Part shown: positions 7,971 to 63,537 of the stretch, in pieces | How positions within the stretch are numbered: the stretch's first letter is position 1 | How the letters are laid out: each line of letters opens with the position of its first letter | Source of the DNA: an uncultured virus (IMG/VR IMGVR_UViG_3300030117_002316) | Taxonomy: Duplodnaviria > Heunggongvirae > Uroviricota > Caudoviricetes | Direction: 5' to 3' (one strand) | IMG/VR virus record: IMGVR_UViG_3300030117_002316 | Location: 1 to 64,000 of that record | Length of the DNA stretch: 64,000 nt | Notes under the pieces: generated by a model | Told to the model about the DNA's origin: nothing | Seen by the model: the letters and a program-made list of their open reading frames with translations, nothing else | Database searches by the model: none | Position numbers and translations under genes: made by a program

Positions 7971-8285
7971 ATGGCTAAGAAGAAACCCAGCCTATCTATT
8001 GACGGACATGATCAAGGATACGGCGGAACTTTTAACGCACACAAACATTGGAAGAAACTCCGAGAGAAACATAGACGCGATGATGCACACCGAGCAAGAG
8101 GTGGCAGTAGAATATGGAAGCCTGAAGTATATAGATCAAAGGGTGCTGGTAAGGGTGATCAGGAACGTCAATCACAAGTACCAAAAGAACTGTACGATTT
8201 AAACTTTGACCTTGCCTTTGGTAATATTACAAAGGAAGAGTACGAAATAAAACTAAAGGAACTCACTAGTGAAGACTTGGAATAG
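7971..8285 (+). CDS. Hypothetical basic protein
   Basis: Strong AAGGAGG RBS; GAGKGD motif. Confidence 0.7.
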   Translation: MAKKKPSLSIDGHDQGYGGTFNAHKHWKKLREKHRRDDAHRARGGSRIWKPEVYRSKGAGKGDQERQSQVPKELYDLNFDLAFGNITKEEYEIKLKELTSEDLE

Positions 8286-10713
8286 TTTATCTGACCAGCA
8301 GCAGCTGGCCCGAAGAGAAACACAATACGACTACGAACGTCAGATGTTAGACTACGGGCGTGAGCGTTACTGGAAAGATTACAACCGAGCACCAGACGAG
8401 GGCATACCTGAACAGGAGCTAATCGATTCTTCTGTTGTTGAACTTGAATCTGTGTACCAAGAGTGGATTGATAATGTGTGTCAGTCTACCAAGTCACCGC
8501 AGTGGTTGTATCCTTTGCTTGAGCTAGGTGCTCGCAAGATGGCGGACATAACCATGCGTGCTGTCGTTCGCAGCTGGTTCTCTAGTGGATTCTGGGGATA
8601 CAGGTGGAACGAAGAACAACACACCCCACCGCTCGCTCAGTCTGTTGCTACTCAGATAGCACAAGATGCTTGTGACATCATGGGATTCCAACGTGCTAAA
8701 GAAAACAAACGAGAAGACTGGATGCGTCAGTCCAAGTTCATAAAGAACTGGACTACCAAAAGATGTAAAGCATTTGCATTAAAGATGGGTGAGAATATTA
8801 ACCTGTCTATTAAACAGAAGCATGACTTCGGACACCACATGCTACGCATTGCTGCGTGCTCTAACATTATCTTACTTAATCCTAAAACAATTAAGAAGGG
8901 TAGGATGTTTAAGAAGTACACCTTTGTAGAGATACATACAACTGTACTTAAAGAGTTACATAAACGCCATCACTTACTCGAGACATCTTCATTGGTTTAC
9001 AGGCCAATGCTTGCGCCGCCTGAGCCTCATACTCTTGTTGAGTCTGGTGGCTACCAAACAATAACTATCCGTAAACCTGTAGTTCAGGGATACCGATCCA
9101 ACTTCTTTGGTGAGTACCCAAAGTCACAAAAGTTTTCCGAGCCCTCTCAATTAGTTCTCGATGGGCTCAACGCAAAGATGAAAACCGAGTGGTCCATCAA
9201 TGAGCAGGTGCTTGAGGTGATGGAGACCATGTTCGAAAACAACAGCGGACTCGCTAACCTACCCTATTATTCCTTTGATGAGTTCATGTTTAACGAGCCC
9301 TACCCTAAAGATGGGTCAAAAGAAGAGCAGGCTATCTGGTGCCAGAAACGTGAGGAGGCATGGGGGGAATGGTACAAGCAAGAGCAGGGCCGTGGCCGTA
9401 TGCTGGTCAGGCTCAAGCTAGCCAAGGATCTAATACCTCACAAATTCTTTTACCAAGTCTACACCCTAGACTTTAGAGGTAGATCATATACAGCATGTGA
9501 ACTTCTGTCCCCTCAGTCTTCTGATTTAGATAGAGGATTAATCATGTTAAGGAACGGACAGAAGCTAACTGATCGTGGCCGTTACTGGCAGATGGTTAAC
9601 CTAGCTAATCTGTTTGATCAAGATAAACTTCCGTTTGATAAACGTGTTGCTTGGGTAGAAGATAATTGGTGCATGATTCAAAGGGTAGCTAGAGATCCAT
9701 ATAGAAACAAGGAGTGGATAGATGACGCAAAGAAAAAGAACAAATCTTTTCAGCGCCTTGCTGCTATCTTTGACATATGTAGGGACGACGGCTATAGCTA
9801 TATCCCTACTAACTTAGACGGTAAGTGTAACGGAAACCAACATCTCAGTGCAATCATGGGTGACCCTGTTATTGCCAAGCTGACTGGTGTTACGCCTTCA
9901 GACAACCCTGAAGATCTGTATCAGTATGTTGCTGATGTCACTACCTTATACTGCACTGAGCATCAAGAAGAAAATGATTGGCATAAAGAATTCCTCAGTC
10001 ATTGGGAGGAAGAGATTCCTCGTAAGGTAACTAAAAGATCTACTATGTGTGACGCATATGGACTTACGTTCTACGGCATACAGAAATACCTAAAGATAGA
10101 AGGACATCTTGATTGGGTTGAAAGAGAAAGAGCTGGTGGTGCTATTGTAGAATTGTCTAGAGCAATACAAGCCAGCCTCAATAGATCTTTGGTTGAACCC
10201 AACAAAGCCAAGGCTTACCTTAAAGAAGTTACAGGCAAGGCTAACGAATTAAACAAGCACCTGTCTTGGACTACACCTAGTGGCTTCAAAGTTGTACACT
10301 ACTATAACCAAGTACAGACAAGAAGATCACTAGCTAAATTGTTTAACAACAAAGAGTTAACCTTCTTTGTCAGGACATCAGACGTAGACTCAAGAGGTGC
10401 AGTTCAGGCTATCTCACCCAACTATGTGCACTCACTAGATGCCGCACATATGTTTCTAACAATTAACAGAATGGCCTTGACAGGCATCGAAGATTTTTGT
10501 ATGATACACGATTCATTCGGCTGTCATCCTAACCAAGTAGATGATATGCTGATAATAATCAAAGAAGAATTCCTAAGGATACACAAGGACAACCAGCTGG
10601 AGAAGTTTAAGATAGAGATAGAACGTCAGCTAGGAGTCCAGCTGCCCCCAATCCCTGAGAGGGGAGATTTAGATTTGTCAGGGGTTTTAGAATCCCAATA
10701 CTTCTTCGCATAA
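8269..10713 (+). CDS. T7-type DNA-directed RNA polymerase (gp1-like)
   Basis: DFRGR, motif A DGKCNGNQH, motif B RKVTKRSTMCDAYG, PNYVHSLDAAH, motif C IHDSFG, C-terminal YFFA. Confidence 0.98.
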   Translation: MKTWNSLSDQQQLARRETQYDYERQMLDYGRERYWKDYNRAPDEGIPEQELIDSSVVELESVYQEWIDNVCQSTKSPQWLYPLLELGARKMADITMRAVVRSWFSSGFWGYRWNEEQHTPPLAQSVATQIAQDACDIMGFQRAKENKREDWMRQSKFIKNWTTKRCKAFALKMGENINLSIKQKHDFGHHMLRIAACSNIILLNPKTIKKGRMFKKYTFVEIHTTVLKELHKRHHLLETSSLVYRPMLAPPEPHTLVESGGYQTITIRKPVVQGYRSNFFGEYPKSQKFSEPSQLVLDGLNAKMKTEWSINEQVLEVMETMFENNSGLANLPYYSFDEFMFNEPYPKDGSKEEQAIWCQKREEAWGEWYKQEQGRGRMLVRLKLAKDLIPHKFFYQVYTLDFRGRSYTACELLSPQSSDLDRGLIMLRNGQKLTDRGRYWQMVNLANLFDQDKLPFDKRVAWVEDNWCMIQRVARDPYRNKEWIDDAKKKNKSFQRLAAIFDICRDDGYSYIPTNLDGKCNGNQHLSAIMGDPVIAKLTGVTPSDNPEDLYQYVADVTTLYCTEHQEENDWHKEFLSHWEEEIPRKVTKRSTMCDAYGLTFYGIQKYLKIEGHLDWVERERAGGAIVELSRAIQASLNRSLVEPNKAKAYLKEVTGKANELNKHLSWTTPSGFKVVHYYNQVQTRRSLAKLFNNKELTFFVRTSDVDSRGAVQAISPNYVHSLDAAHMFLTINRMALTGIEDFCMIHDSFGCHPNQVDDMLIIIKEEFLRIHKDNQLEKFKIEIERQLGVQLPPIPERGDLDLSGVLESQYFFA

Positions 10714-42472: not shown

Positions 42473-42483
42473 AAAGGAGTATT

Positions 42484-43524: not shown

Positions 43525-43547
43525 TGTTAAATAAAAGGAGCCTATGA

Positions 43548-48852: not shown

Positions 48853-51800
48853 ATGAGTGACAACACTTGGGCTTATACGCCCATTCCGCTGACTACAGGA
48901 AGTATAGTAGAAGAGGAAATGTTAAGAGAGCGAAGAGATAAAGCTCTTCGGACAGTAGAAAAAATCCCCTTCTATAAAGATACACCTGATTATGCAGCAG
49001 CATTTGAATCTCCCCTTATCTTCCAAGATATAGATTCAGGAGAAATTGTCAGGGGCATGATGCATACAGCAGAAGCTTCTAGGCAACAAATGAAAACTGA
49101 ACTCACTAGAGGTTTTACTTCCAGAGATAAGGGTTTCCAGCAAATGGTTTCCCAGCAAGCAGTAGGTGGTAGAGACTTAGAAAAATATGAAAACACTATT
49201 TTGGATTTAACCGACGCACAAGAAGAAATCTTAACGTCAGGTGCTGAAGGTCCGCAATGGAATCTTGAGTTTTGGAATTATTCGGTAGATGATATTCCAA
49301 TTTATGATTTAGCTGTAGGTGGACCAGAAGATATACTAAACGATGAGCCACCAGAGGGATGGAGTGTAGACTCAGCTATAGAAGTCTTTAAGGAATCAGA
49401 TCCGGAATTATACAATATTATGTCTCTATCTTTAGGTGGAGATTCTGGTATTGCTGAAATTGTTAAGGATGCTAGAAACCCTATGGAGTTCTTTGTTAAG
49501 CTTCAGCAAAGACAACAGCTCCTTGCTATTACTGAAAGTCAACAAGAGTTTGATAGAAGAAGCGGATGGTTCGGAAGACAATACGAATGGGGTAAAAACT
49601 TTATTGTAAATGGTATTTTAGATGATCCAGATATGGCAGGATCTATCGCTCTTTCTCTAGGTTTATTAGTTACAACAGGTGGTATTGGAACAGTAGGAGC
49701 TATAGCTGCTAAGGTAGGACAGACAGCCTTGAGAGGATATAAGTTCGCAAAGGCAGGCAGAGCTGCCAGAGTAGCGGGTAGAGCTTTAGCAACTAGTGCA
49801 AAATACGGACGACAGGCCCAACATTGGATGCCAGAAAACTTAGGACCAACTTTAGTTAAGAGCGTCTTATTTAAGAATAGGTATCAAAGCTGGAGCGGAT
49901 TAAAAAGATTTTCTGTAAATAGACTAGCTGACTCGGCTGAAGGTACAATTAGTGGTGGTATTGCAGAGTTCTTTAACCAGAATAGAATGAAGGGACTTGG
50001 GATTACTGATGATATCAGTTACACCTCAGTCTTAGCAGAAGCAGCAGTAGAAGCTATGGTGTCTCCTATGATTAACCCCGGTATGGGCCAAGCTATGAAA
50101 TTAGTTGGAGCCGTCTCTGCTGTACCCGGAACACTGGGAGCGATGGCTTGGGAAGGAACTATAGGAAAAACTGAACTAGGAGAATTCTTAGGAACTCTTG
50201 GAGAGAAAACTATAAGTATGTGGAATCCTGATTCTGTTATTACTTCTATGGATGCCTACGATAAGAAAGAAGAAATCTTTGCATCTATGAATTCACTATT
50301 AGTAGAAGGTGAATCTGTAGGAAAGTCTTTAGATGAAAATGAATTATTAGCAGGTCTTTTAGAGACCCTCAAAGTAACTACAGAACTAGATGATCTTACT
50401 TTTCTTGATAAGATAAACGGTGCTTTAGGAGAGCTAATCCTAGCTAGAGATAATGCAACGGGTACTCAAAAGAAAATGACTGGTCTTGAACTCGCTATTG
50501 GGTTAGCTAATCAGTTGGCTACTAAAGATCAAGACATCAAGGCAGCTATGCAGGGAGATAACTATACTGAGTTTATGTCGGTCTTAGGAACCCAAGTAAC
50601 TATAGCACAGAATGCTAGAAGAGAAAACAAAACTATAGATGAGTATTTAGATGATGTGAATGAAAAAGGAAACTATTTCGATCTTCTTCCCGATGTTCTA
50701 AAGGAACGGGTTTATAAAGAAAACGGCGGCAAAGCGGTAGTAGATAAACTTACTGATAAAGCAAAGAGAGAAAAGGCAGCCGAGATACAGCTTGAGATTG
50801 TGAAGAAAACTAGAGAAGTTCACAACAATTTCCAAGATAGAACAGACGAACAGACAAATAAAATTGAAAAGATTGAAAGCGACGCTAAGAAAGTTGCTAG
50901 GAAGCATAAGGTAAACCCTCCTGTTATTACCGTTGTTGAAGAGAAAACAGATACAGACTTAACAGATACAGACTTAGCTGATACAGAAGAAGAAGCCATA
51001 GTAGAAAAAGAACCTTCTTCTGGAATGATGCAGCACCAAGAAAACATGGACAAAATTAAAAAGGGTAGAGCAGAGTTAAGAAGGGTAAAAGAAGAACTTA
51101 AGAAGAAACATGATAATGCTTCCGATGCTGACGCGAAAGAAGCTCTTGAAACAGACATTAAAGAAATTGATAACCTTTTGTCAGAAATGGCCGAACTAAG
51201 TAGGAAAGCTACTGAATCAATGAATGTTTATTTAAGAGAATCGGGGCAGGACAAGAAGCTGATTGAATTAGGTAGGACTCTTTCTACAATTGTAGCAGAT
51301 GTTAAAAAGTTTGAAACAGATAAAGTTAAGCCTTGGGAACAAAAAATGCATAAATTCGCTAAACCAAGGCTGGGGATACAGCAAATACAAATTAGGTTTA
51401 TGCGTGAAAACTTTAAAGAAGAATATCCAGATGGTCTTCGCTATTCAGATTTAAACTCGGATGAACAAGCAGCTATAAATGATGCTATAGAAGTTCTTGA
51501 GGGTAGGGGAAGTAAGTATTTAGAAAGAGTTAGGGACGGCGAGAAGATAAGCATTAAACAATTGAAGCAAGTTGTCGAAAGAATTGGCAATAGAATGAAA
51601 AAAATCCACGATGATTTTGAAAAATCCTCAGAAGGACGAGAGTGGGCTGATCATGTAGAAAAACAGAATAGAGCATTAGCAGATTACCAAGTTGCTTTCG
51701 CACAATACCAACAAGAGAACATGGTTAGTGAAGTTATCCGCATGGCGCAAGTCAGGGGCATTGCTGAAACACAAAAACTTAGAAGAGCAAAAGAAGCTCA

Positions 51801-54800
51801 GCTAAAAGGAATGAGAAAAACCGTAGATCAATTTATTAGTGAACATGTTGCTGCTAATCCAGATACCCCCATTTCTGCTAAACAAGTTATAGATAGACTG
51901 CCTAGATGGTCAAAGTTAAGAAAGAAACTTGAGAGTAACAGAAACAAGGGTGAGTCTTCTATTAATGTTGCTGAATTAAAAACTATGATTGATGAAGATT
52001 TTGCCGACATGAAAAAGAATATTCGAGTAGGAAAGCAAGACCCTAGATACAGAAGATTTAAAAGATCAGACGCTGTTAAAGATAGATATAAAGGTCGGTT
52101 TGCTAATGAAGTTTCTGATAGTGAGATTCTTGATGTGGACTATGATCAAGATTGGTTGGTTCAGAATATTGAAATAGGATCTCCTGTTAAGAGTGGAGCT
52201 TTATTTTCTATAGAACAAGACTCCAAAGCGTTTGCAGAGTTTAAAGCAAACCTATCTGATTTGTCAAATACGGTTGGAGCAATAGACAATGAAGGAACTA
52301 TTTCTGCTTGGAGACTTACTACAAATATGCCTGAGTATTTCTGGGACTTAGGTCTTCCGCTTCACCTTATATTCAGAGAAGCAATGATTGATCCAGAGGG
52401 AACTGAGGGAGCGAGTAAAAAAGGAATTGCTACATATTGGTCAGGCAACGAGGAATTCTCCCACGCTAGGTTTGACTATGCTACGGTAATGAAAATTCTA
52501 AACACATGGCAACAGATTACTAAATCCAGATTGGAAGGAATAGTAGCAGATCACGGTAAGAACATCGCATCAGAACTATTAGAAGAACTTTTAGAAGAAG
52601 GAAGCTCTTCTAATTTACCAAACTTACACAGAACAGTAGAGTTTTTAAATAACGTAATAGAAGCTGATAGAATATTTAACAAAGAACGATTTGAAGCAGA
52701 CGGATTCATTTTAACAGTTGATGAAGAAACTGGATTCCCTGCATCATTTGCTAAACAAACTGACGGCCATAGATTTGTAGGTGCTGTTAAAAAAGCTATC
52801 CACCAAAGAGTTGAAGTTTTAATGGGACGGAGAAAATATCGAGAAGCTCTTCGTGGGTTAATAGGCCTCGATCCAAAGAAAAAATTTGAGCGCGAATCTC
52901 CGGAAGCATTGAATAGTAGAATAGCTCAGGAAACAGCCGACATTACAAGTTATATTATGTCAGAACTTTCAGATCTTTTAAATACAGTGGGACCAGAACA
53001 TCTTAATTATATAGAATATACTATTGAAGGATTTGGTAACGGAGAGATTTCGTGGTCCTCTCCTAAACAAGCGGGGGATGGGATTGTTGATACCATTATT
53101 GGAAAGCTTGTTCCTGAGAAGAGCAGGCTTTCAGGAGTAGGAGAAGTACCAGATATCCCAACTACAGAATCTAGAGTAATAGGACAATCTGTCAGAACTG
53201 CTGCTCCTTTAGAGGCAGATACAAATGCAGCGGCTCCTGTACCTACTTGGGAAATTAGAAGAGCAGTAGAAAATCATAAGTTCAGATTACGGGTTAGGGA
53301 AGTTTTAAAAAGAGCTGAATCAGGTAAACCTTTAACCCAAGCTGAAAAAGATATCTTATATAACAAAGCACACGCTGAATATAAAGAATCTAGACTTAAG
53401 GATAAGATGGATCCAGTAGCTGACGAAATGGATGTATATGTCGTCCCTCAGATTATAGGAGGCCATCTTCAGGAAAGGATAATGACAAGAGGAGAAGCTA
53501 AGGAATTCATGTTAGAGATTTTCTTAGATATGGCTCATGTTAGTTACTCCTTCATTCAAGATGCTCAGACTATTGCTAACGGTGGAACTCTTAGATTTAA
53601 GAATACTGCTGAGAATCCACAGCCACTGGCAATAGCCGGACTAAATGTAGGATACGATAATATTGTTCCTTGGGGACGTTTAGGAGAAACCCTTGCTCTG
53701 GAAGAGATGTCTCCCAATTTAAAGGGGATGACTGAAACAGTAGCTACTGCTCACTTAGCTTGGTTGGCCGAACGTAAAGAAAAATGGTTAGCTAATAATC
53801 CGGGCAAGGAATGGAATATAAATGAAATCCTAAGTGACTCAAATCAAATTGACCAAGTAGGTAGTGGACTCCAGATTACTACATTACTTTCCCGTATAGG
53901 TGATGAGGGGGTTGCTAGACAGCTTGGTGAAATAGAAGCACTATTAGCTGGCGACAATGAAAACAGGTATGAGTTTTTAGATGAGAATGGAGATGCTAAA
54001 GTAGATGAAGACGGAAACTTTATTAGCTTAGCTTTAGAAGATATATACGTTAATAGTGGCTTGGGTGCTGTCGCTGCCATGAGAGGGAAGCATTCTGATA
54101 ATGAGTTTATTCAGGGCTCTGGTCAGTGGAATACCGTAGTATTTAAATGGCTGGCAGACAATAATATCAATACCGCAGAAGATTTTAGAAATGCTCTTGC
54201 TACTATGGAAGGTCAAGAATTAAAGAAGGCTAAGGCTTGTAGAGAATTCTTTAAGATTCCTGTCTTGCGTCGTTTATATGGTGGTGGTCTTGATTCTTGG
54301 AAATTAGAGTTTATTGGGGCAAACCCTAGATCTCGTGAAAAGATAAAAGATTTAGAGGCAGCTTTTGCAGATGAGAATTTAAAGTTTACTGACGAAGAAT
54401 TATTAAACTTAGGTAAGTCTTGGTTAGGCCACGCTGGTAAAACTGTAGGCCATATCCTTGATGCTGCTATGGGCTTTGAGGGCACGATGAGAAAGAAGGC
54501 AATGTCTTTCTATACTCAAGGCAGAAGCTCACAAATGCTTTCTGAGGCGTGGAGAGATATTGTACAATCAACTACGATTCCTGCTAGGGATAGCGAGACT
54601 GCTCAGGGGGCACAGGAGTTGGTAGGTGAGGACGGCGGAATTCATGTTATGGACCGCATCGAGCGTGTTAAGAGAGACTTAGATGCTAAATTAGATTGGT
54701 TGGCTGAGAGAATGCCCGGAGATCCTGATAAAAATAGAATTGAATTAGAAGAAAAGTATCAGGATAGATGGGGTAAAGCAAGAGAGTTTATAGAAGAAGT

Positions 54801-57800
54801 AGAACGCAAGGGTGAGAATTTAAATGACGGCAGCCCTAACTGGGAACGTTTACAGGAAATACTTCACGGTAATACTATGAGTTGGGAAAACATTCGACTG
54901 TTTAGAGCTACGAATATTCTAAACGCAAGTGCATATAGTTTGAATATGCAACGAATGAAGCAAGTAGCTAACGATTTTGGATTCCCTGATTTTGATCCTG
55001 AAGACTGGATGGGACTTGAAAACCAACTATTATTCCACTTAAACCTCCCAACACAACGTTCTCCAAGATCCTATAGTGTAGGTGGATTAGATACTCACGG
55101 TATCTTTGCAAATAGAGTAGCAGTAAATCCTGAAAAGTTTACTGCTTTCATGCAAGAAGCTAAAGAAAGAGTATTGCGAGAAGAGGGACGAGAGTTTACA
55201 AGAGAAGATTTTGAAGAAGCTCTTGGAGACTGGTTAGAAAATAGAGATCCAGATGCTATGGGTATGTTTGATATGAAGGATAATATCTTTAAGGGAGAAA
55301 CTCGAGAAGATGTGGATGCCGAATTAGATAGGCTAATGGATATCGATCAGCTTCTTTATATGGCAGGAGAAGATACTTTAGATCCTAAACTATTCCCAGA
55401 CTACCATGCAGAAAGCAGTGAGATAGCAGTAATAGATAGTTTAAATAGGATGTGGTATGAGCATAATGAAAAAAGATTCCGTACTCCAGAAGGAGAAACT
55501 GATAGGACTATAGCAAGCGAAATAGAGTTTGAGGAAAGAATGTTAGCTAGCGGAGAACACGGCAGGGCTATCTTACTCAACAGAGCTAAAATTCTTGGTG
55601 GTTATAGAAGCTCTAAAGTTGCTAAGGCTATGGGCGGAGCTAAGGTTGAATACCACAGACGAGAATACAGTGCTTCTGAAGCTATTGGAACTAAAGAAGA
55701 ACATGATTTATATATGTCTACCGTAGCTCCTCAGGGTCCGTTGTCTTTAACTCCCAAGTATAAACGAATGTCTTATTTCAATAGAGGAATCCCCGCTCTT
55801 CAAAGAGAAGGAGTTCAGAGACAGATAAACGAAGTAATGGCTCCTATTGCCAGAATTGATCCAACGTTAGCAGATACCGCTATCGATGCAAGAGTAGGAG
55901 ATACTACTAACAAGGGAGTAAGTATCTTTGAAGATCATCCAGCATTGTTAGGATGGAAGCCGCCTTGGAAAAGAGAGAATCTTCCAATGCCAAGACCTAT
56001 CAGGATTGATGAACTGTTAGAGCTTAATATTGATGATGAGATTGGACGCAAGGCTGTTACCATTCTTCAGGATATGAGAGAGTGGGCTTCTCTTAGACCA
56101 GACGTACTTGAAGATTTAGAAAGTCCTGAGGGATTGATATATTGGTACGTTACTAGAGAGATAGAACGTCTTAGAGAATCCCAGCTTAATGATTTGCCCG
56201 CATATGACGATTTTAATACAACGGAAGAAGAAGGGCTTGCTTATGCGAGAAGATATAGAGAGAAGTGGTTGAAGGGCTTACACGATCTTACTCATTTCTC
56301 CAGAGACATTAAATACGGATCAGCTAAGGGATATACTTTGTCTGATAGTGCTAGAGAACTATCGGTCCAAGCTGCAAAGTATGGGGAAGAAAACATTACA
56401 GAGCCAGAATGGTTAGAGCTTTTGACATCTAGAATGTCTGAGAATAATCCTAGAGGTATTGGTTTGTCCTCGCCTACTAGATTAGATAAAGCACTATCGT
56501 TCATTCTTCCTAGAGAAAACGTAATATTAATAAATAAGTTGGGACAGAACGGAGCTAAAATAGAAACAAACGAGTTAAAAATGTTAGCTCAGTTGATACA
56601 GTCTACCGACTTTAATCTCCATCTTTTAAGTGTACTGTATACAAACGAAATACTTCCTAGTGTTTTAAAGGAGTTTACGGTTACTCTTCCAGATGGGAGT
56701 ACAGTTAAACCCTATGCTGATAAGAAGTTTAAAGCCTTAGATAGCGAGGGAAATATACGACGTAACTCTAAGGGTGAAGTAATTGAATTAGCTATGTGGG
56801 AAGATCCTAATCTATGGGAACAATATATAGATCCTAGTCACATCCATGCTATTATCGCTCAAGCTAAAGAGTGGGTAAAGAAGAACGGAAAGGATGACAT
56901 TGTATTTGATACTTTGATTGAGACCCAGATTACAAGTGATCCTAAAGTAGCTGGCGGTAAGATGGAAAAGATGAAAGTACATCTTGCTTCTTCGACTCCT
57001 GATGCTGTTGGTGGCAGGCAAGGATCAAAGCTTATGCCTCACGTAATGGGTGGTAGTGTATTTAGAACTGTCAATACGCAGACCGAAGTTACAGGTAAGG
57101 GAACACTGGCCCTTACTCCAGACAAGGCATTAGAATTATTTGCATACTTAGAATCTATGCCAGTAATTATGAAATCCCGAAGATCTCAGTGGGGGAACAT
57201 TGCACTTGGGTTTGAACGAGATCCGGTAACCGGTCTTCCTAGAGAAGTCCAACCTGTTTCAAGAAGTATTGAAGAAGGTCTTGGACATAGCGAACGAGAG
57301 ATTAGAGAAGCAGAGATTAAACGAAGCAATGCTCTTGAAAGAATCATAGCCACTAAGGAAGAAACAGGAATTAACGTTAGGATGGTTGCAGATGAGACAA
57401 GAACTACTGAGGGTGGTGCTATAGTTCAAGTTGTAGATTTGGATCACTATTCTAAAGGAGACCATGCTGCAAGAATGGGCCGAAGAGATTCTTGGTTTGA
57501 ATCATTCCTTAGTCCGATTGAAAAACAAATTGGATACTTAAAGGCTACAAATATTCATTCAGGAACCTCTCCTGCCTTATTAGCACAACTAGAATCTGTA
57601 GTAGAAGGAGCTAGAGAAGCAAATCTTGCAGACGACGTAGACGGAGATTTAAATGCAGCTGTAGCAATGTGGTTAGGTATTATGCTTCAGTTAGATGATT
57701 GGAATAAGTTTATACAATTAAAATCATACGGACCAATCTTTAAAACTTTCATTGGTCAGGATAGGTTCTCTAAAGCAACCAATGCTGAAGCTTTTGCTCA

Positions 57801-60800
57801 AGCTAAAAAATTAGCCCGACAAATTAGACAGGTTGCGGGAATAGACTGGCGTGGTGGAGGACTTACTGGACAAAGGCATACGAATTTAATAAACGCAATA
57901 AGAGAATGGGCTTCGCATGCCGCAGAGGAAGAGGGATTAAATGCAGAACTTTCTCCATCAGAAAACTTTAAACAGTGGGTAGCAGAAAATAGAAACACTG
58001 TGAGAAAGAGTCTAGGGATAGATGTTGTAGATTGGGAATCATTAGGCTTTACTTTAGAAAACGATGAGTTAGTATTTGAAGGTATTGGAGATAGCAGAGA
58101 TCCGGATGTGCCTGCTGAAGAAGAACTTAGATATATTGTAGAATATGCTATAGGCAAAGAATTATTAGATGTTGAACAAGATAGTAATATCACAACATTT
58201 GAAACCGATGAATCAAGATTAAACTCTACGGGTAAAGATTTAATTCGCTTAGTAAAAGATCCTGATGAATTTAGAAAAGCTGTTAACCGTACTGGAGACA
58301 TGAACCTTCGTCGAGTTGCGTCTGATTTAGATGGACTGGAGGGACAAGTATCCCCTCGAAATCTTGAAAGGCTTAGAGCGTTAGTATCCAGAATGTGGGC
58401 AATCAACCCAATGAATCTTCTTGATTTAGAAATAGGCAGAGACTTTGTAGCTAGAGAAGGAAAGCCTAGAGTAAAAAGATCCGAAGATGGTAAGTTTGTA
58501 ATACGGATGGGAAATAAATTAGACACTCCCCTTAATGACCCAAATGTTGCGTTAGTATTTGCGCACGAACTAAGTCATATGGGTAGAATGAAGTGGGTAG
58601 CAGATAATAGTGGAACATGGAGACAGTGGGTAGATCTCTATCACAGTAAGGCAGGAAGAACTCTATTAGCTAAAATTGTTCAAGCTTGGCACGGAGGACA
58701 GTGGACAGCTGTTGCTGAACAGGAATATAATTCCTACTTGAAAGATCCAGAAGAATTTATAGCTGCGTTAACTTCTTATTATTTAGTTAACGATTCCCTT
58801 CCTGCTCTTGAATTAGACGAGAACGAAGGCAGAGTTCTGGGAAGGGCTGATTCTATTATTGATCGTATTTTAGATTTTGTAAGACAGCATTTCTTAAGAG
58901 TAGCTTCAGTCCTTACAAACTTCCACTACGAAGATCCTAAACTTGCAGGACATGTTGAATCCTTAATACAGAAAACACTGGGATGGGATCCTGAAGGAAA
59001 GAAAGCATTCACTGAAATACAAAACGAAGGTACTACTCGTGAAATGTTCTGGGATAAAAGATTTGAAGATCCTGCTAATGATTATATCTATAGCTTAGAT
59101 GAGCTTCAAACAAAAATCAAAGAGCACAGTGACTTGGCTGAATTGGGAGAAGACAGAGACGATGCCCAAGATTCTAGATTTCTTAGATTAGATGAAGAGC
59201 TTAATGATCCAAGATCTGGTGCAGATCACATGCTGGCAGCAGGGCTTTCAAGATATGATTATGAAATAGCCCATGCAGAAAATATGGAAAGATTTGCTGG
59301 TCCTAACGGAACGCTAGACTTATCCGCTATGATGAAATCTATTGATACAAGTAGAGGAGACGCTGTAAACATGACAAGTATGGCGGCTGCTTTACAGTAC
59401 GCTATGACAAAATTAGATGACACATACGGTGCTCAATTCCGTCAGGGTGGTGGCGTTGTTCTTCATAAGATTATGAAGGCGGCAACAATGATGCTATCTA
59501 TGGGACACGGAGATCCTGTTAAGTGGGCTAGAGGATTAGCAGACTTAACCGTAGGTAAAACAGGAGCTAACCATACTTGGAATGGTCCTCATCCTTTTGA
59601 GGCATTATTGACAATGTTAATAAATGATGACATTGCTACAACTATTGGACAGTACACTAATGTACGGGGTACACCGTCTGTTAATCGTAATGTTGTGGGA
59701 ATGATTGCTACATATCAGGAAAGAATCATAGCGTCCCAAACAAAAATCACAAACTTGCTCCAGCCTTGGATGACTAAATTCTTAGGACACGAGGCACACT
59801 TTACAACAAAGGCCAAAGAAAGAAGTGCAAAAATTTGGGATGCTGTTTACTTTGAAATTATGCGCAAGACCGAAAACCCAAACCACGAAGTAGAACTATC
59901 AAAGCTTGTTGAAGATGGCATGGGAGTAGAGTTAGCTGGTAAGATTAAAACAGAAATAGAAAATATTGCTTTATCATTGTCTAAGTTTATGCAGGACTAT
60001 ATGGTTGCGGGCAAAGAACTTGGGGTTATCAGTGAGCACACAGCAGACGATACTCACACCCTTCCCTACAAAATGACAAAACGTTTAAACGAATACGATG
60101 CTAGATCTGGATTTATGAATAACATGGGTACAATGCTTCAAGATAAAATCATAAACACAGAAGAATTAATAGATCCTGTCGTAATGTATTGTGGAGGTCT
60201 TCTTCCTAGATTTGATACTCTTAAAGGTCTTAAGAATGATTTAGAAGAAATAAAGAATGTAGATAACGGAAGCCTATTCCAGATGATTGCTTATAAGGCA
60301 GCAGAAGCTGCTAATAAAGCAGAAGGTAAGGACATAGAAGACAGAGCAATAGTGGCAGGTAGAAAGCAGGCTGTTGTTAATCAGTTATATTCTGCGGATG
60401 ATCACGTTGCTACAAATGCTTTAGAACACTTTAGACAGGGTGTTTTAACAATCATGCGGGAAATGGGACATAAGAGACTTACTGTAAGTGAACTTAAGAA
60501 TGACCATAATATTAATTGGGATGCTTTTAAAGATAGGTATGAAAGAGCTGCTTCTAAAAATCATGTAGTCCAAGGAGACAGAATACAGGCATTAGACAGC
60601 CCAGCATTGGATGCAATAGTTCCAGACTCTATTCACTACTCCCCCGGAAGAACAACCGCAAGAAAACACCATGTAATGAAAATTAGAAACGCAGTAGATC
60701 TTCACTTACATAACTTAATGAATCGTGCGTCCGCAGGTATGTACTATACTTGGGATATGTGGTCTATGCCTACTGTTCTTGAAGCAGCCTCTGATCCAGT

Positions 60801-62880
60801 AATCAGACCTCACCTTATTCTTAGTCCTAGAGATATTATGGATGATATGAAAAAAGGCAGAGGCGATAAGATGTTTGAAAGACAGATGATGGTAGATGAG
60901 TTTAATATCTTTGGAGATGTATCTGATCTTCTGAATTTATTCGAAACGGTAGCTAGTAGAGGACCGGGAGAAACCTTCTATAACTACGACGGAACTCCCG
61001 TTTCTAGAGAAACCCAAAACCACATGGTTAAGTCTGCTCAGGTTCTTAGGGGTAAGCACGATGTTACAAGAGGAATTAAGCACTCAGCTGAAGGACCAAG
61101 TAGTACTGAAAATATCTTTATGCAAATGGCTCCGGGCATTACTAGAACAGTATTCGGAGGAAACCTTGCAATGGCAACTGCTACTGTTGAAGGAATGATG
61201 AACGTCCTTCAGGAAGCTTTGGGCAAGGGTAACATTGTAAACGCACTGCGTGGAATCTTTGCTCCTATCTTAGGTCTTAGTCGAGAGGGACAGGAAAGAG
61301 TTGCTAGAGATCTTGTCCATACCGTAGAGGCTTTAACTAAGGGACACCTTCCTGATCACGAAATGCCAGCTAATGCAATACAACAGAATTGGGCAGTAAA
61401 GGCTGTAAACTTTACGGGTAGACAGGCAATGCGACCTGCCCAGCATATGTTGAAAACTATTGCAATGTCTAGAGCTGTATCAGCTAGAAACTTTATTACA
61501 GACAATCTTTTACATAAGACAACTAAGGGTAAAGACGGATCCCGTGTTCCCCGTCTTGAAAGATTGGCTCAGTTAATTAGGGACGAACCTTTAGGGGACG
61601 ATCCCAAAGCATTAAGAGATAGAATGCGTAAGGCAGGATTTGGTACGATATTAGCAGGAGACCTCCCCCTTATTTCATATATGTTAAGAGCGGGAGTTTT
61701 AAATCTTGAGGACGGATCCTTTGATAACCTTCAGTCTATGGTTAAAGAAGGAACACAAGAACACAGGTACTACAGTCCGGGTGAGATGTTAGGTAAGTTA
61801 CACAGGAGTGGTCTTGAAGTAACCGATCCCGAATATCAATCAAGAAAGAAGATTATCTCTGGTCTTAGGTTTATTGAGAAGGGCTATATCGAAGAAGTGC
61901 TGGTGGCTCCTAATGCCTTTGATATCTTTACCCCAATGGTCAGTAAGACAGGAGAGGTATCTGGTGTGGGTGCAATGGATACCTTGTTTGAAATCTTCCG
62001 GCGATACCCCATGCTCTTCGTTAGTCAGCATATTTATCGTAAGGCCAATCGTCTTGATTTTACTCGGTTTGCTTTTGGTGCAGCTAGTATGATTATGTTA
62101 GATATGGTTTACATGCTTGCATTGAGATTAGCTATGGGTGCTTATCCTGAAGACATCTGGGATGAGTTTGAGAAAAACCCTGTACAGTTTACAATGCTGT
62201 ATGCCAGTAGGCTGCCTATCCTTGGTCGATACATGGGATTCTTAGCAGAAGCTACAGCTCAGGTTACAAGCATGGCTCAAGGTAGAACCACCAGACAGCC
62301 CGGTGGATTTGTCCCAACGGCAGCAGTATTCACAGCCTTGGGTGGAGGATTAAAAGCAGGACAGTCTTGGTTAGACGACGAACCCCATAAGTGGCAGGAC
62401 ACGATTAATGCTGCTAGGGTTGTTCCCCTGCTGGGCGAGGGTATCCTTCGCTTAGGGATCTACACAGCAGCCGGAGACAGCATTACAAGACGTAAGCACA
62501 GCTCAGGTGGAGGAGGGTCCGGCTCAGGCTCAGGAGCCCCTATACACTACGGAGTGACCTCTCACGCTCTCAATCAGGGATATAATGTAGAATTACGTAA
62601 GCTTCTAGAGGAGTTCTCTGGGCAGCAGCTTAGGTGGCCTCAGTATGAGGCTCAGCGAAACATGAGTATTCCATTTAGGGATACTACTGTGCCTGAGGTT
62701 CCAAAGGAAATGGAAGGAATGACTCCTCCACCAAGGATGCCCTCCACCTCTGTCCCAGAGCCCGCCCCAGCCCCCGCCTCGCCTCCCGTCCCCGCGCCGA
62801 CTTCAGTTGAGCCCGATATGGTAGATCGCCTTAGAGGGCAACAGGGGACATCTGGTAAACTAGCAGACGCACTGGGGTAA
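48853..62880 (+). CDS. Giant (4675 aa) putative internal virion protein with RNAP-like domain and zincin motif (candidate virion RNA polymerase)
   Basis: Motif A-like DQVGSGLQ (D1667), EDIY, motif B REFFKIPVLRRLYG (R1797), AHELSH (H3238) followed by EEFIA; N-terminal hydrophobic/Gly-rich segment like ejection proteins. Confidence 0.75.
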   Translation: MSDNTWAYTPIPLTTGSIVEEEMLRERRDKALRTVEKIPFYKDTPDYAAAFESPLIFQDIDSGEIVRGMMHTAEASRQQMKTELTRGFTSRDKGFQQMVSQQAVGGRDLEKYENTILDLTDAQEEILTSGAEGPQWNLEFWNYSVDDIPIYDLAVGGPEDILNDEPPEGWSVDSAIEVFKESDPELYNIMSLSLGGDSGIAEIVKDARNPMEFFVKLQQRQQLLAITESQQEFDRRSGWFGRQYEWGKNFIVNGILDDPDMAGSIALSLGLLVTTGGIGTVGAIAAKVGQTALRGYKFAKAGRAARVAGRALATSAKYGRQAQHWMPENLGPTLVKSVLFKNRYQSWSGLKRFSVNRLADSAEGTISGGIAEFFNQNRMKGLGITDDISYTSVLAEAAVEAMVSPMINPGMGQAMKLVGAVSAVPGTLGAMAWEGTIGKTELGEFLGTLGEKTISMWNPDSVITSMDAYDKKEEIFASMNSLLVEGESVGKSLDENELLAGLLETLKVTTELDDLTFLDKINGALGELILARDNATGTQKKMTGLELAIGLANQLATKDQDIKAAMQGDNYTEFMSVLGTQVTIAQNARRENKTIDEYLDDVNEKGNYFDLLPDVLKERVYKENGGKAVVDKLTDKAKREKAAEIQLEIVKKTREVHNNFQDRTDEQTNKIEKIESDAKKVARKHKVNPPVITVVEEKTDTDLTDTDLADTEEEAIVEKEPSSGMMQHQENMDKIKKGRAELRRVKEELKKKHDNASDADAKEALETDIKEIDNLLSEMAELSRKATESMNVYLRESGQDKKLIELGRTLSTIVADVKKFETDKVKPWEQKMHKFAKPRLGIQQIQIRFMRENFKEEYPDGLRYSDLNSDEQAAINDAIEVLEGRGSKYLERVRDGEKISIKQLKQVVERIGNRMKKIHDDFEKSSEGREWADHVEKQNRALADYQVAFAQYQQENMVSEVIRMAQVRGIAETQKLRRAKEAQLKGMRKTVDQFISEHVAANPDTPISAKQVIDRLPRWSKLRKKLESNRNKGESSINVAELKTMIDEDFADMKKNIRVGKQDPRYRRFKRSDAVKDRYKGRFANEVSDSEILDVDYDQDWLVQNIEIGSPVKSGALFSIEQDSKAFAEFKANLSDLSNTVGAIDNEGTISAWRLTTNMPEYFWDLGLPLHLIFREAMIDPEGTEGASKKGIATYWSGNEEFSHARFDYATVMKILNTWQQITKSRLEGIVADHGKNIASELLEELLEEGSSSNLPNLHRTVEFLNNVIEADRIFNKERFEADGFILTVDEETGFPASFAKQTDGHRFVGAVKKAIHQRVEVLMGRRKYREALRGLIGLDPKKKFERESPEALNSRIAQETADITSYIMSELSDLLNTVGPEHLNYIEYTIEGFGNGEISWSSPKQAGDGIVDTIIGKLVPEKSRLSGVGEVPDIPTTESRVIGQSVRTAAPLEADTNAAAPVPTWEIRRAVENHKFRLRVREVLKRAESGKPLTQAEKDILYNKAHAEYKESRLKDKMDPVADEMDVYVVPQIIGGHLQERIMTRGEAKEFMLEIFLDMAHVSYSFIQDAQTIANGGTLRFKNTAENPQPLAIAGLNVGYDNIVPWGRLGETLALEEMSPNLKGMTETVATAHLAWLAERKEKWLANNPGKEWNINEILSDSNQIDQVGSGLQITTLLSRIGDEGVARQLGEIEALLAGDNENRYEFLDENGDAKVDEDGNFISLALEDIYVNSGLGAVAAMRGKHSDNEFIQGSGQWNTVVFKWLADNNINTAEDFRNALATMEGQELKKAKACREFFKIPVLRRLYGGGLDSWKLEFIGANPRSREKIKDLEAAFADENLKFTDEELLNLGKSWLGHAGKTVGHILDAAMGFEGTMRKKAMSFYTQGRSSQMLSEAWRDIVQSTTIPARDSETAQGAQELVGEDGGIHVMDRIERVKRDLDAKLDWLAERMPGDPDKNRIELEEKYQDRWGKAREFIEEVERKGENLNDGSPNWERLQEILHGNTMSWENIRLFRATNILNASAYSLNMQRMKQVANDFGFPDFDPEDWMGLENQLLFHLNLPTQRSPRSYSVGGLDTHGIFANRVAVNPEKFTAFMQEAKERVLREEGREFTREDFEEALGDWLENRDPDAMGMFDMKDNIFKGETREDVDAELDRLMDIDQLLYMAGEDTLDPKLFPDYHAESSEIAVIDSLNRMWYEHNEKRFRTPEGETDRTIASEIEFEERMLASGEHGRAILLNRAKILGGYRSSKVAKAMGGAKVEYHRREYSASEAIGTKEEHDLYMSTVAPQGPLSLTPKYKRMSYFNRGIPALQREGVQRQINEVMAPIARIDPTLADTAIDARVGDTTNKGVSIFEDHPALLGWKPPWKRENLPMPRPIRIDELLELNIDDEIGRKAVTILQDMREWASLRPDVLEDLESPEGLIYWYVTREIERLRESQLNDLPAYDDFNTTEEEGLAYARRYREKWLKGLHDLTHFSRDIKYGSAKGYTLSDSARELSVQAAKYGEENITEPEWLELLTSRMSENNPRGIGLSSPTRLDKALSFILPRENVILINKLGQNGAKIETNELKMLAQLIQSTDFNLHLLSVLYTNEILPSVLKEFTVTLPDGSTVKPYADKKFKALDSEGNIRRNSKGEVIELAMWEDPNLWEQYIDPSHIHAIIAQAKEWVKKNGKDDIVFDTLIETQITSDPKVAGGKMEKMKVHLASSTPDAVGGRQGSKLMPHVMGGSVFRTVNTQTEVTGKGTLALTPDKALELFAYLESMPVIMKSRRSQWGNIALGFERDPVTGLPREVQPVSRSIEEGLGHSEREIREAEIKRSNALERIIATKEETGINVRMVADETRTTEGGAIVQVVDLDHYSKGDHAARMGRRDSWFESFLSPIEKQIGYLKATNIHSGTSPALLAQLESVVEGAREANLADDVDGDLNAAVAMWLGIMLQLDDWNKFIQLKSYGPIFKTFIGQDRFSKATNAEAFAQAKKLARQIRQVAGIDWRGGGLTGQRHTNLINAIREWASHAAEEEGLNAELSPSENFKQWVAENRNTVRKSLGIDVVDWESLGFTLENDELVFEGIGDSRDPDVPAEEELRYIVEYAIGKELLDVEQDSNITTFETDESRLNSTGKDLIRLVKDPDEFRKAVNRTGDMNLRRVASDLDGLEGQVSPRNLERLRALVSRMWAINPMNLLDLEIGRDFVAREGKPRVKRSEDGKFVIRMGNKLDTPLNDPNVALVFAHELSHMGRMKWVADNSGTWRQWVDLYHSKAGRTLLAKIVQAWHGGQWTAVAEQEYNSYLKDPEEFIAALTSYYLVNDSLPALELDENEGRVLGRADSIIDRILDFVRQHFLRVASVLTNFHYEDPKLAGHVESLIQKTLGWDPEGKKAFTEIQNEGTTREMFWDKRFEDPANDYIYSLDELQTKIKEHSDLAELGEDRDDAQDSRFLRLDEELNDPRSGADHMLAAGLSRYDYEIAHAENMERFAGPNGTLDLSAMMKSIDTSRGDAVNMTSMAAALQYAMTKLDDTYGAQFRQGGGVVLHKIMKAATMMLSMGHGDPVKWARGLADLTVGKTGANHTWNGPHPFEALLTMLINDDIATTIGQYTNVRGTPSVNRNVVGMIATYQERIIASQTKITNLLQPWMTKFLGHEAHFTTKAKERSAKIWDAVYFEIMRKTENPNHEVELSKLVEDGMGVELAGKIKTEIENIALSLSKFMQDYMVAGKELGVISEHTADDTHTLPYKMTKRLNEYDARSGFMNNMGTMLQDKIINTEELIDPVVMYCGGLLPRFDTLKGLKNDLEEIKNVDNGSLFQMIAYKAAEAANKAEGKDIEDRAIVAGRKQAVVNQLYSADDHVATNALEHFRQGVLTIMREMGHKRLTVSELKNDHNINWDAFKDRYERAASKNHVVQGDRIQALDSPALDAIVPDSIHYSPGRTTARKHHVMKIRNAVDLHLHNLMNRASAGMYYTWDMWSMPTVLEAASDPVIRPHLILSPRDIMDDMKKGRGDKMFERQMMVDEFNIFGDVSDLLNLFETVASRGPGETFYNYDGTPVSRETQNHMVKSAQVLRGKHDVTRGIKHSAEGPSSTENIFMQMAPGITRTVFGGNLAMATATVEGMMNVLQEALGKGNIVNALRGIFAPILGLSREGQERVARDLVHTVEALTKGHLPDHEMPANAIQQNWAVKAVNFTGRQAMRPAQHMLKTIAMSRAVSARNFITDNLLHKTTKGKDGSRVPRLERLAQLIRDEPLGDDPKALRDRMRKAGFGTILAGDLPLISYMLRAGVLNLEDGSFDNLQSMVKEGTQEHRYYSPGEMLGKLHRSGLEVTDPEYQSRKKIISGLRFIEKGYIEEVLVAPNAFDIFTPMVSKTGEVSGVGAMDTLFEIFRRYPMLFVSQHIYRKANRLDFTRFAFGAASMIMLDMVYMLALRLAMGAYPEDIWDEFEKNPVQFTMLYASRLPILGRYMGFLAEATAQVTSMAQGRTTRQPGGFVPTAAVFTALGGGLKAGQSWLDDEPHKWQDTINAARVVPLLGEGILRLGIYTAAGDSITRRKHSSGGGGSGSGSGAPIHYGVTSHALNQGYNVELRKLLEEFSGQQLRWPQYEAQRNMSIPFRDTTVPEVPKEMEGMTPPPRMPSTSVPEPAPAPASPPVPAPTSVEPDMVDRLRGQQGTSGKLADALG

Positions 62881-62972
62881 ATCGACTAGGGGGTCACGAA
62901 TTTGTCTGGGGGTGTAATGGTTGCATGGAGCAACCTTATCCCCCCTTACCCCCCTTGTCAAAGGAGACAAGA

Positions 62973-63269
62973 ATGAAGAAGACAGTACTCATCGTACTGG
63001 TCGTGGCATTCCTTGTTATTGTACCACAGCGTGCTGTGCGTACAATCAATGAGTGTGTCATTGCCAACCTTGGCACATCCATCTTGGAGTGCCAGAGCGT
63101 TCGAGATGTCGCTGTGCTCGGCGAGTTCCTCGTCGAGAACACAGTCGACGGCTGGATTCCCTACCAGATCGGGTTGGATCTTATCGATCCAAGCTGCTGG
63201 TTTGGTTCGCCATCTCACGAGATGGATGATCCGAACGAGCAGTACGACATGCCTCAGTGGGTGCACTGA
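62973..63269 (+). CDS. Early protein with N-terminal signal/TM segment
   Basis: AAGGAG RBS; MKKTVLIVLVVAFLVIVP. Confidence 0.7.
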   Translation: MKKTVLIVLVVAFLVIVPQRAVRTINECVIANLGTSILECQSVRDVAVLGEFLVENTVDGWIPYQIGLDLIDPSCWFGSPSHEMDDPNEQYDMPQWVH

Positions 63270-63481
63270 TGGCAAAGCGTAGCTTCAAAGTCCACGATGT
63301 TGTGACCCTGCCGCCTCGCGGTGGGGCACAGCATCGTGGACGAGGCATCGTCGTCAAGGTCACGAAGAAGAAGGTAACTGTGTTACCGATCCCCGACCAC
63401 TCGTCGGGGAACCTCACGTTTAAGCCAGACCAGCTCCGGTACTGGCGAAAGGGCAACCGAAACCGGAGAATGCACGAATGA
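63269..63481 (+). CDS. Small basic early protein (possible SH3/KOW-like fold)
   Basis: TGATG coupling; FKVHDVV...GIVVKV pattern. Confidence 0.6.
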   Translation: MAKRSFKVHDVVTLPPRGGAQHRGRGIVVKVTKKKVTVLPIPDHSSGNLTFKPDQLRYWRKGNRNRRMHE

Positions 63482-63484
63482 CCA

Positions 63485-63514
63485 GCCCATGCTGCCTTAA
63501 CGGGTAGCATGGGC
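63485..63514 (+). terminator. Stem-loop between early genes
   Basis: GCCCATGCTGCC-TTAACG-GGTAGCATGGGC. Confidence 0.5.
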
Positions 63515-63537
63515 ATTCTATATAGGAGGCCTGATGG

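Follow-up and report, generated by a model that had tools for sequence, protein, structure and literature searches.

A giant protein of 4675 amino acids, encoded in a 64,000-nucleotide stretch of DNA from an uncultured virus (hereafter the window), appears, with a probability of about 0.5, to hold a very divergent polymerase module of the Pol-A/single-subunit RNA polymerase (ssRNAP) type and to be packaged, probably, as N4 gp50. The module would span residues ~1545–2345 of this protein, P0001, being clearest at residues 1650–1880, and would represent a divergent T7/N4-type single-subunit RNAP module of the Pol-A superfamily. An earlier note on this DNA had proposed an RNAP-like domain within the giant protein. 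The proposal is upheld in part: it is strengthened by invariant motifs, a helical motif B, the first rank of T7 RNAP in structure comparisons and RNA_pol neighbors in a protein atlas; sequence searches gave no significant match to a polymerase.

The Giant Protein and Its Family

P0001 is encoded at positions 48853..62880 by a single uninterrupted reading frame on the plus strand, which also carries the motifs, segments, and two RNAP genes described below. Its family comprises 53 representatives at E ≤ 1e-3, mostly of 4650–5700 amino acids and otherwise fragments; P0003 is a further member with 53% identity to P0001. The family is restricted to one clade of T7-like phages with genomes of ~58–82 kb, and no papers on it were found in the open-access literature searched. 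P0001 itself had no match in Pfam (E ≤ 1) or the PHROGs (E ≤ 0.01). The limits of phmmer domains against 19 long homologs, together with the alignment, define a conserved central block at residues ~1113–2700 (52189..56952), which holds the polymerase-like motifs. A Kyte-Doolittle scan and the conservation profile place an N-terminal hydrophobic segment at residues 261–283 (49633..49701), within a conserved block at residues ~200–430, and a C-terminal one at residues 4406–4428 (62068..62136), within a conserved block at residues ~3900–4600. No similarity was found between the ends of P0001 and the NTD or CTD of N4 gp50. A second conserved block contains the sequence HELSH (58564..58578), an HExxH motif of the zincin type, whose residues H3238, E3239, and H3242 are each retained by 16 or more of the 17 full-length homologs. 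Matches to SprT-like Pfam families were weak and below the cut-off in two of the 10 homologs scanned (E 0.004 and 0.021), and the block is best described as carrying a candidate zincin-type metallopeptidase motif.

Conserved Polymerase-Like Motifs

T7-like single-subunit RNA polymerases are defined by motifs A, B, C, and DX2GR (PMC4496689). Four strings had been quoted in the earlier note as T7-type motifs, VPWGRL, IDQVGSGLQITTLL, LEDIY, and REFFKIPVLRRLYGGG, and all four lie in frame within the single ORF at 48853–62880. Their conservation was counted over 20 long family members with 22–53% identity, aligned by MAFFT, and the same residue conservation was seen in alignments of 33 and 44 rows. 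D1667, R1797, K1801, and Y1809 are invariant (20/20), D1730 is present in 19 and S1671 in 18 of the 20 sequences; in T7 and N4, the equivalents of the four invariant residues serve in binding of the catalytic metal and of the incoming NTP. The alignment of homologs, which had been suggested as a check, thus bore out both motifs A and B and the D-x-Y block (18–20 of 20), while VPWGRL proved variable.

The motif A-like string IDQVGSGLQITTLL begins at residue 1666 (53848..53889) and includes D1667, the candidate metal-binding Asp, in a family context of D-x3-[SN]-G; its counterparts are EADGVTNGP in N4 and LDGKCNG in the T7-type RNAP that the phage itself encodes (the window RNAP). LEDIY, at residue 1728 (54034..54048), separates the two motifs as a D-x-Y block and corresponds to D-[LM]-Y in N4-like vRNAPs and to EDLY in the window RNAP. 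The motif B-like string REFFKIPVLRRLYGGG begins at residue 1797 (54241..54288) with R1797, followed by K1801 and Y1809, and its R-x3-K-x7-Y-G spacing is common to P0001, N4 (KRGIAKNPLTITIYGSG), and the window RNAP (RKVTKRSTMCDAYG), with K-x-P and Y-G-x-G also as in N4. The spacing of motif A, D-x-Y, and motif B in P0001 likewise agrees with that of the N4 mini-vRNAP and the window RNAP. A combined pattern derived from the N4 vRNAP and the window RNAP (D-x3-[NS]-G, then D-[ILVFY]-Y, then R-x3-K-x7-Y-G, with loose spacers) matched P0001 once, at residues 1667–1810. Among 20,000 shuffled versions of P0001, the combined pattern was found in none, motifs A and B together in 22 and motif B alone in 651, figures that serve as a rough guide, the pattern having been composed after the match was seen. 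Judged by sequence, three of the four quoted strings are genuine conserved features, beyond chance.

Missing and Relaxed Motifs

The fourth string, VPWGRL at residue 1605 (53665..53682), had been proposed as a DxRGR motif. Only P1606 is conserved (20/20); W occurs in one of the 20 sequences and G and R in six each, and since these columns are variable, the string is not a DxRGR motif. Residues 1500–1667 of the 20-member alignment contain no invariant Arg, and DX2GR/TX2GR is absent there. A candidate motif C, GMFDMKDNI, occurs in the canonical position at residues 2137–2145 (55261..55287; compare KIFDGMN in N4), where a β-strand is predicted at high pLDDT. G2137 is conserved in 19 of 20 sequences, D2140 and D2143 in 15 each, and no Asp C-terminal to motif B is invariant in this alignment, these being the best candidates. 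An invariant Asp is found upstream instead: D1570 (20/20) belongs to an “h-h-[HQ]-D” element at residues 1565–1574 (SFIQD...; 53545..53574) and lies at the turn of a predicted β-hairpin, formed by strands 21–24 and 27–30 of model 2 at low pLDDT. D1570 may represent a second catalytic Asp or, alternatively, the D of a degenerate DX2GR. A scan with short-motif HMMs for motif C gave near-zero scores that were divided between the 1570 and 2140 sites.

Predicted Structure

In a ranking of both structural models against 48,161 chains, T7 RNAP came first each time, in a register that agrees with the motifs. The superposition is limited to the fingers region with the O-helix; a fingers-like region at residues 1650–1876 (53800..54480) superposes on T7 RNAP residues 449/540–690. 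The thumb, N-terminal domain, specificity loop, and motif C of T7 RNAP were not recognized in P0001, and the N4 mini-vRNAP was not among the best 50 of either ranking. Foldseek searches with the models, twice against the PDB and once against BFVD, returned nothing at E ≤ 1e-3, and re-ranking of the best 1000 PDB matches revealed no ssRNAPs, just weak matches to Pol gamma and Taq. Of the right-hand (thumb, palm, fingers) fold sought in the earlier note, the models show a fingers-like part, by the first rank of T7 RNAP. Motif B is predicted as a helix in both models (pLDDT ~80), and the motif A stretch that includes D1667 is recognized at the level of the sequence motif only, because its local pLDDT is below 50 in both.

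Sequence and Profile Comparison With Polymerases

Direct sequence searches detected no relationship to polymerases. Residues 1400–2800 of P0001 had no polymerase match by phmmer against the PDB and no match by tblastn against 50,697 phage records; phmmer against the PDB also found no polymerase for residues 1–1399 and 3001–4675 or for the 1312-amino-acid protein encoded nearby. BLASTP of P0001 against the phage's own RNAP gave no significant match, Pfam searches with 10 homologs no polymerase at E ≤ 0.1, and an HMM built from T7-like RNAPs no consistent match to 17 of the giant proteins. Profile-profile comparison by hhalign placed D-x-Y and motif B of the giant family in register with a profile of seven N4-like vRNAP sequences (E 0.044–0.068; 0.044–0.25 for N4 profiles overall). 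The T7-like profile aligned to the same giant-family columns, 560–675, with template columns spanning motifs A to B (E 0.094). Probabilities were 0.2–1.2% for the family against the window RNAP, T7-like, N4, N4-like, and ~600-amino-acid RNAP profiles. Among the controls, N4-like against T7-like profiles reached 83.9% and the ~600-amino-acid family against T7-like 96.4%, and N4-like against the ~600-amino-acid family just 0.8% (E 0.067); the silence of hhalign on the giant family is weak evidence, because these two ssRNAP families are not linked by hhalign either. In a protein atlas, the nearest embedding neighbors were PF00940 RNA_pol and N4 RNAP clusters (0.75 for a 1200-residue query and 0.87 for residues 1560–1900), which serves as a lead and no more.

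Genome Context

The genome is T7-like, with a T7-type portal, capsid, tube, nozzle, terminase, and primase-helicase. It also carries a canonical T7-type single-subunit RNAP of 814 amino acids (8269..10713; PF00940 9.2e-77, phrog_414 1.2e-156), which was found in all five related genomes checked, and the phage's own Pol A gene (16103–17800). A second, divergent ssRNAP of ~599 amino acids is represented by its C-terminal 385 amino acids (2..1159), the N-terminal part being located at genome positions 64275–65012, across the contig junction. Its homologs, of 602–629 amino acids, are encoded directly downstream of the giant gene in the related genomes G001, G002, and G005. The presence of two free-standing RNAPs is counted against the reading preferred here. 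A direct-repeat scan of the window for promoter-like repeats yielded nothing convincing.

The giant gene lies downstream of TerL and five ORFs without assignment, one of 1312 amino acids and thereby similar in size to T7 gp16, and this synteny is conserved. The ORFs at 41735–48831 and P0001 had no match to a structural family in Pfam or PHROG, and comparison of the giant protein and the five upstream ORFs with Pfam, PHROG, and PDB sequences revealed no similarity to the internal virion protein (IVP) families of gp14, gp15, and gp16. Such proteins are known to diverge beyond the reach of these sequence methods (PMC4819975). Gene order suggests that the giant gene may be the last of an internal-virion cluster, as stated in the earlier note, and that P0001 is likely to be virion-delivered.

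Alternative Explanations

The module is probably a homologous Pol-A-type domain and, given homology, probably also catalytically active. It is doubtful that RNA synthesis has been lost from a Pol-A-derived module, its NTP- and nucleic-acid-binding fingers being reused, e.g., for gripping or translocating incoming DNA in the ejection apparatus. Of the four motifs that define ssRNAPs, two, DX2GR and an invariant motif C, are lacking or degenerate, the T7 RNAP superposition covers the fingers region alone, and two further RNAP genes are present in the phage, all of which speak for such a loss, but the metal-binding Asp and the R, K, and Y residues are invariant across 22–53% identity, as in an active site. 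In a module that only binds, drift at D1667 would be expected, and the invariant D1570, in its h-h-[HQ]-D context, could provide a second carboxylate. Even an inactive module would leave a conserved, unannotated core of 1600 residues in a family of roughly 4700-amino-acid proteins. Convergence or chance, in which the region is helical scaffolding within a giant protein for structure or ejection and D, R, K, and Y serve its unrelated function, is not very likely either: the invariant motifs, the structure rankings led twice by an ssRNAP among 48,161 chains and the embedding neighbors, although not fully independent of one another, agree on ~230 residues and their register, and the hhalign silence that might favor chance carries little weight (N4-like vRNAP against the ~600-amino-acid RNAP also gave E 0.067).

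A Pol-A-type DNA polymerase or primer-extension enzyme is very unlikely, and RNA rather than DNA is, with good confidence, the expected product. The best structural matches were RNAPs, although Pol I chains are numerous in the library, the atlas neighbors are RNA_pol families, and the phage already has its separate Pol A gene. In Pol I enzymes, a Glu five residues after the motif A Asp serves as a steric gate; motif A of P0001 is instead of the RNAP type, D-x3-S-G, and lacks this Glu. It is also unlikely that P0001 represents a third, hitherto unrecognized ssRNAP lineage with an active site rearranged in the order C-A-B. The D1570 “h-h-[HQ]-D” hairpin resembles the T7-type motif C (IHDS), yet lies upstream of motif A; D1570 would be the second carboxylate, and the primer-contacting arginine of DX2GR would have been lost. 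The packaged and injected giant protein would then start a three-polymerase cascade, leading to the ~600-amino-acid RNAP and from it to the 814-amino-acid RNAP, and would free the phage from its need for host RNA polymerase.

A Possible Virion-Delivered Polymerase

Under the preferred reading, a very divergent polymerase module in a probably packaged protein, the module would still bind NTP and metal and polymerize RNA, and the whole 4675-amino-acid protein would be packaged and delivered with the DNA in the manner of N4 gp50. The first transcripts would then be independent of host RNA polymerase and could include both free-standing phage RNAP genes, and transcription may also help to pull the genome into the cell. 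Virion-delivered single-subunit RNAPs are known from N4-like phages; none was found for T7-like phages in the open-access literature searched. If the module is active, an entire clade of marine T7-like phages that are abundant and uncultured would use an N4-style injected polymerase besides two free-standing RNAPs, and the ssRNAP family would reach sequences invisible to current profiles. Its new minimal set of conserved residues (motifs A and B retained, no DX2GR, a displaced or relaxed motif C) would then allow ideas on Pol-A catalysis to be tested, and biotechnology would gain a candidate orthogonal polymerase.

Comparison With Known Systems

Polyvalent proteins of phages and conjugative elements, reportedly described by Iyer et al. 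in 2017, resemble P0001 as giant multi-domain proteins with an enzymatic core and a zincin-like HExxH module, and the non-significant BFVD matches by Foldseek include proteins annotated “Large polyvalent protein associated domain.” Unlike them, P0001 has no significant match to their domains, and its family is confined to one T7-like phage clade. The likeness to T7 gp14, gp15, and gp16 lies in the position of the gene in the late/structural half, past five ORFs, and in the hydrophobic segments near both ends, whereas the P0001 cluster is placed after the terminase gene and not after the tail tube genes. IVPs are known to host enzymatic cargo domains (PMC4819975). With T7 RNAP and PF00940 members, P0001 shares the motif A Asp, D-x-Y, and the R, K, and Y of motif B, the fingers and O-helix being the best structural match, but it has no PF00940 match at E ≤ 1, compared with 9e-77 for the phage's 814-amino-acid RNAP.

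The differences from N4 gp50 are considerable: similarity outside the motifs is undetectable (none by tblastn; hhalign E 0.044–0.25), P0001 is without TX2GR or an invariant motif C, is ~1200 amino acids longer and contains the HExxH block, and its genome is T7-like and not of the Schitoviridae. Divergence is strong in the N4 polymerase too, whose similarity is restricted to motif blocks (PMC4496689), and the N4 vRNAP is embedded in an IVP-D homolog (PMC4819975). N4 gp50 (3500 amino acids, with the mini-vRNAP at residues 998–2103) and P0001 have in common a central polymerase-type block with large N- and C-terminal flanks, motif A of the form D-x-V-x-[NS]-G and motif B of the form R-x3-K-x-P-x5-Y-G-x-G, at similar spacing.

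Genome Context and Free-Standing RNA Polymerases

The IMG/VR virus record is 65,014 bp in length, with an estimated completeness of 97%, and the window comprises its bases 1-64000. The record is labelled linear; its last 99 bases (genome 64916-65014) repeat window 1-99 (98/99 identical), and the assembly is therefore either circular, closing on itself, or terminally redundant. Nearly all genes in the window are on the + strand, and 31 ORFs scanned against PHROGs and Pfam revealed a T7-like layout that includes a single-subunit RNAP of 814 aa (8269-10713; PF00940 at 9e-77), a replication module (gp2.5-like SSB, primase-helicase, Pol A, exonuclease, and class II RNR), T7-type structural genes (portal, scaffold, capsid, tube A, and nozzle), a 1629-aa beta-helix fibre, and TerL (39943-41637). 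The early region also encodes a DUF932 protein (PF06067, 5.7e-35; 6914-7900), the ribonucleotide reductase at 20130-22040 is of the class II (B12) type, and three adjacent tRNA genes (Met-CAT, Arg-TCT, and Leu-TAA; 12973-13200) lie between the SSB-like and primase-helicase genes.

Five ORFs without an assigned family (245, 346, 213, 1312, and 196 aa; 41735-48831) separate TerL from the giant ORF, which encodes a 4675-aa protein, P0001 (48853-62880). The five gave no match to Pfam, PHROGs, or PDB sequences; homologs of four of them occur at related loci in unchanged order, and the arrangement o245, o346, o213, o1312, giant is kept wherever the flanks of those loci reach. Judged solely by position and size, these five ORFs are candidate internal virion proteins.

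A canonical PF00940 RNAP was present in all five related genomes tested (58-82 kb). Unexpectedly, the ORF at window 2-1159 (+) proved to encode the C-terminal portion of another, divergent RNAP, containing motif A (YIDAAASG), K-x7-Y-G, and IHDS, and matching the 814-aa RNAP by BLASTP at 1e-4 and phrog_414 at 8e-6. The N-terminal part of this enzyme lies across the contig junction, at genome 64275-65012 (L004:2276-3013), giving a total of ~599 aa. In three related genomes (G001, G002, and G005), the giant gene is followed 1-2 kb downstream by a gene for a homolog of 602-629 aa, and none was found in a fourth (G003); the clade thus has, in addition to the giant protein, two free-standing RNAPs. 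The ~599-aa RNAP gene resides in a G+C-rich segment (52% in window 1-4000 and 47% in 60001-64000, versus ~40% in the remaining genome) together with several unassigned ORFs; those found there on both strands may be spurious.

A Family of Giant Proteins

The giant ORF had no Pfam or PHROG match, no PDB sequence match, and no tblastn match among 50,697 phage records. When aa 1450-2649 were searched exhaustively with HMMER, 53 representatives passed E<=1e-3 and 24 of these E<=1e-30; nearly all are 4650-5700 aa in length or fragments, and no known polymerase was among them. One relative, a protein of 4661 aa, is 53% identical to P0001. Relatives are encoded at seven loci in IMG/VR and nine in metagenomes, homology within the family spans aa ~1113-2700, and the open-access papers searched contained no description of the family.

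Outside the putative polymerase region, three further blocks are conserved. The N-terminal block (aa ~200-430; window 49450-50140) contains a hydrophobic segment (261-283) and many invariant residues, including G254, D258-P259-D260, E363-G364, A371-E372, and N375-Q376, and matched no known family. The second (aa ~3175-3400) contains an HExxH motif (H3238, E3239, and H3242; aa 3238-3242, window 58564-58578) that is conserved across the giants; weak, sub-threshold SprT-like Pfam matches were obtained in two of 10 homologs, and the block is a possible zincin protease or SprT-like domain. The C-terminal block (aa ~3900-4600) has a hydrophobic segment at 4406-4428. A 4994-aa homolog, P0025, matched RNase_H_2 (PF13482) at aa 3013-3115 (E 9.8e-5, slightly above the curated cut-off); P0001 lacks this match, and accessory domains therefore seem to be swapped within the family. 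No similarity was found between the giant and the terminal domains of N4 gp50 or the T7 IVPs. Such proteins are described as diverging past the reach of simple searches, and the vRNAP of N4 is reported to lie inside an IVP-D homolog (PMC4819975).

Conserved Polymerase-Like Motifs

The earlier note had read four strings as T7-type RNAP motifs. All four lie in ORF 48853-62880 at the positions reported for them, and conservation among P0001 and 19 long homologs bore out three. In this 20-sequence alignment, D1667 of motif A and R1797, K1801, and Y1809 of motif B are each invariant (20/20), while D1730 of the middle block is present in 19 and S1671 in 18. Near-invariant residues are sparse across the alignment, and they include exactly those on which the reading in the earlier note depends; the 33- and 44-row alignments made for folding agree. 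The fourth string, VPWGRL, proposed as the DX2GR motif, was rejected, as its W, G, and R are conserved in only one, six, and six of the 20 giants, respectively.

Across the family, the consensus of motif A is D-[RQ]-x-x-S-[GV], that of the middle block D-x-Y, and that of motif B R-x3-K-x-P-x-[ML]-R-x2-Y-x-[GA]-G. The counterparts are EADGVTNGP, NDLY, and KRGIAKNPLTITIYGSG in N4 mini-vRNAP and LDGKCNG, EDLY, and RKVTKRSTMCDAYG in the phage's own 814-aa RNAP. A pattern built from these two enzymes matched P0001 once, at 1667-1810, and matched 0 of 20,000 shuffles, a figure that serves as a rough guide, since the pattern was post hoc.

Structure Prediction and Profile Comparison

Two models were predicted, one of aa 1400-2599 (33 rows; mean pLDDT 65.7, pTM 0.51) and one of aa 1545-2345 (44 rows; mean pLDDT 71.1, pTM 0.62). 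In both, motif B is on a confident helix and the motif A residue falls within a stretch of pLDDT <50. Foldseek returned nothing at E<=1e-3 in PDB or BFVD with these models. VIA-align, which is independent of Foldseek, ranked T7 RNAP (3e2e_A) first for both models among 48,161 representative chains; human mtRNAP followed in positions 6 and 8, and yeast mtRNAP was 47th. If the register of the T7 RNAP match is extrapolated from the starts of the reported ranges, D1667 would align with T7 residue 537, the catalytic Asp of that enzyme. Protein-atlas neighbours, which below a score of 0.9 are leads only, included PF00940 RNA_pol clusters at 0.75 for a 1200-aa query and at 0.87 for aa 1560-1900; for the latter, the N4 RNAP helical clusters and the vRNAP clusters stand further down the list.

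Comparison of the giant-family profile by hhalign with a seven-sequence N4-like vRNAP profile (E 0.044-0.068) and with a T7-like profile (E 0.094) yielded no significant probability. In the top local alignment with the N4-like profile, D-x-Y and motif B are in register, and the best T7-like alignment uses the same giant-family columns. In controls, the N4-like and T7-like profiles matched at 83.9% and the ~600-aa RNAP family matched the T7-like profile at 96.4%; N4-like against the ~600-aa family gave only 0.8% (E 0.067), with polymerase motifs in both, which shows the limit of this test.

Missing Motifs and the Nature of the Probable Module

The ssRNAP family is defined by motifs A, B, and C, DX2GR, and a right-hand fold (PMC4496689). 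In the 20-sequence alignment, DX2GR is absent and no invariant Asp occurs downstream of motif B. The best motif C candidate at the canonical position is G-M-[FWY]-D-x-x-D-N-P (aa 2137-2145), a confidently predicted strand that resembles KIFDGMN of N4 and in which D2140 and D2143 are each conserved in 15 of 20 sequences. Near motif A, just two acidic residues are invariant, D1570 (20/20) and E1617. D1570, in the context h-h-[HQ]-D (e.g., FIHDQ), precedes D1667 by 97 residues and sits at the turn of a hairpin predicted with low confidence; it could represent the Asp of a degenerate DX2GR strand or, more boldly, a motif-C-like element shifted upstream. Motif C HMMs gave scores near zero: the T7 type placed three of six scoring sequences at 1564-1571, and the N4 type three of 10 at 2130-2150.

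The best reading of these data is that the giant contains a very divergent polymerase module of the Pol-A/ssRNAP type within a probably packaged protein, and we put the probability of homology at about 0.75. The proposal of the earlier note, that it is an active, virion-delivered RNA polymerase, is more tentative, with odds that are at best even. A polymerase-derived module that is not an RNAP would fit the variable motif C candidate and the absence of DX2GR; the invariance of the motif A and B residues speaks for the enzyme, and we regard this alternative as unlikely. Convergent or unrelated resemblance, against which the invariant motifs, the first rank of T7 RNAP, and the atlas neighbours speak, appears comparably improbable. 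That the module is a DNA polymerase is less probable still; the best VIA-align matches and the atlas neighbours are RNAPs. On the best reading, this would be an N4-like arrangement within a T7-like phage clade that also encodes two free-standing RNAPs.
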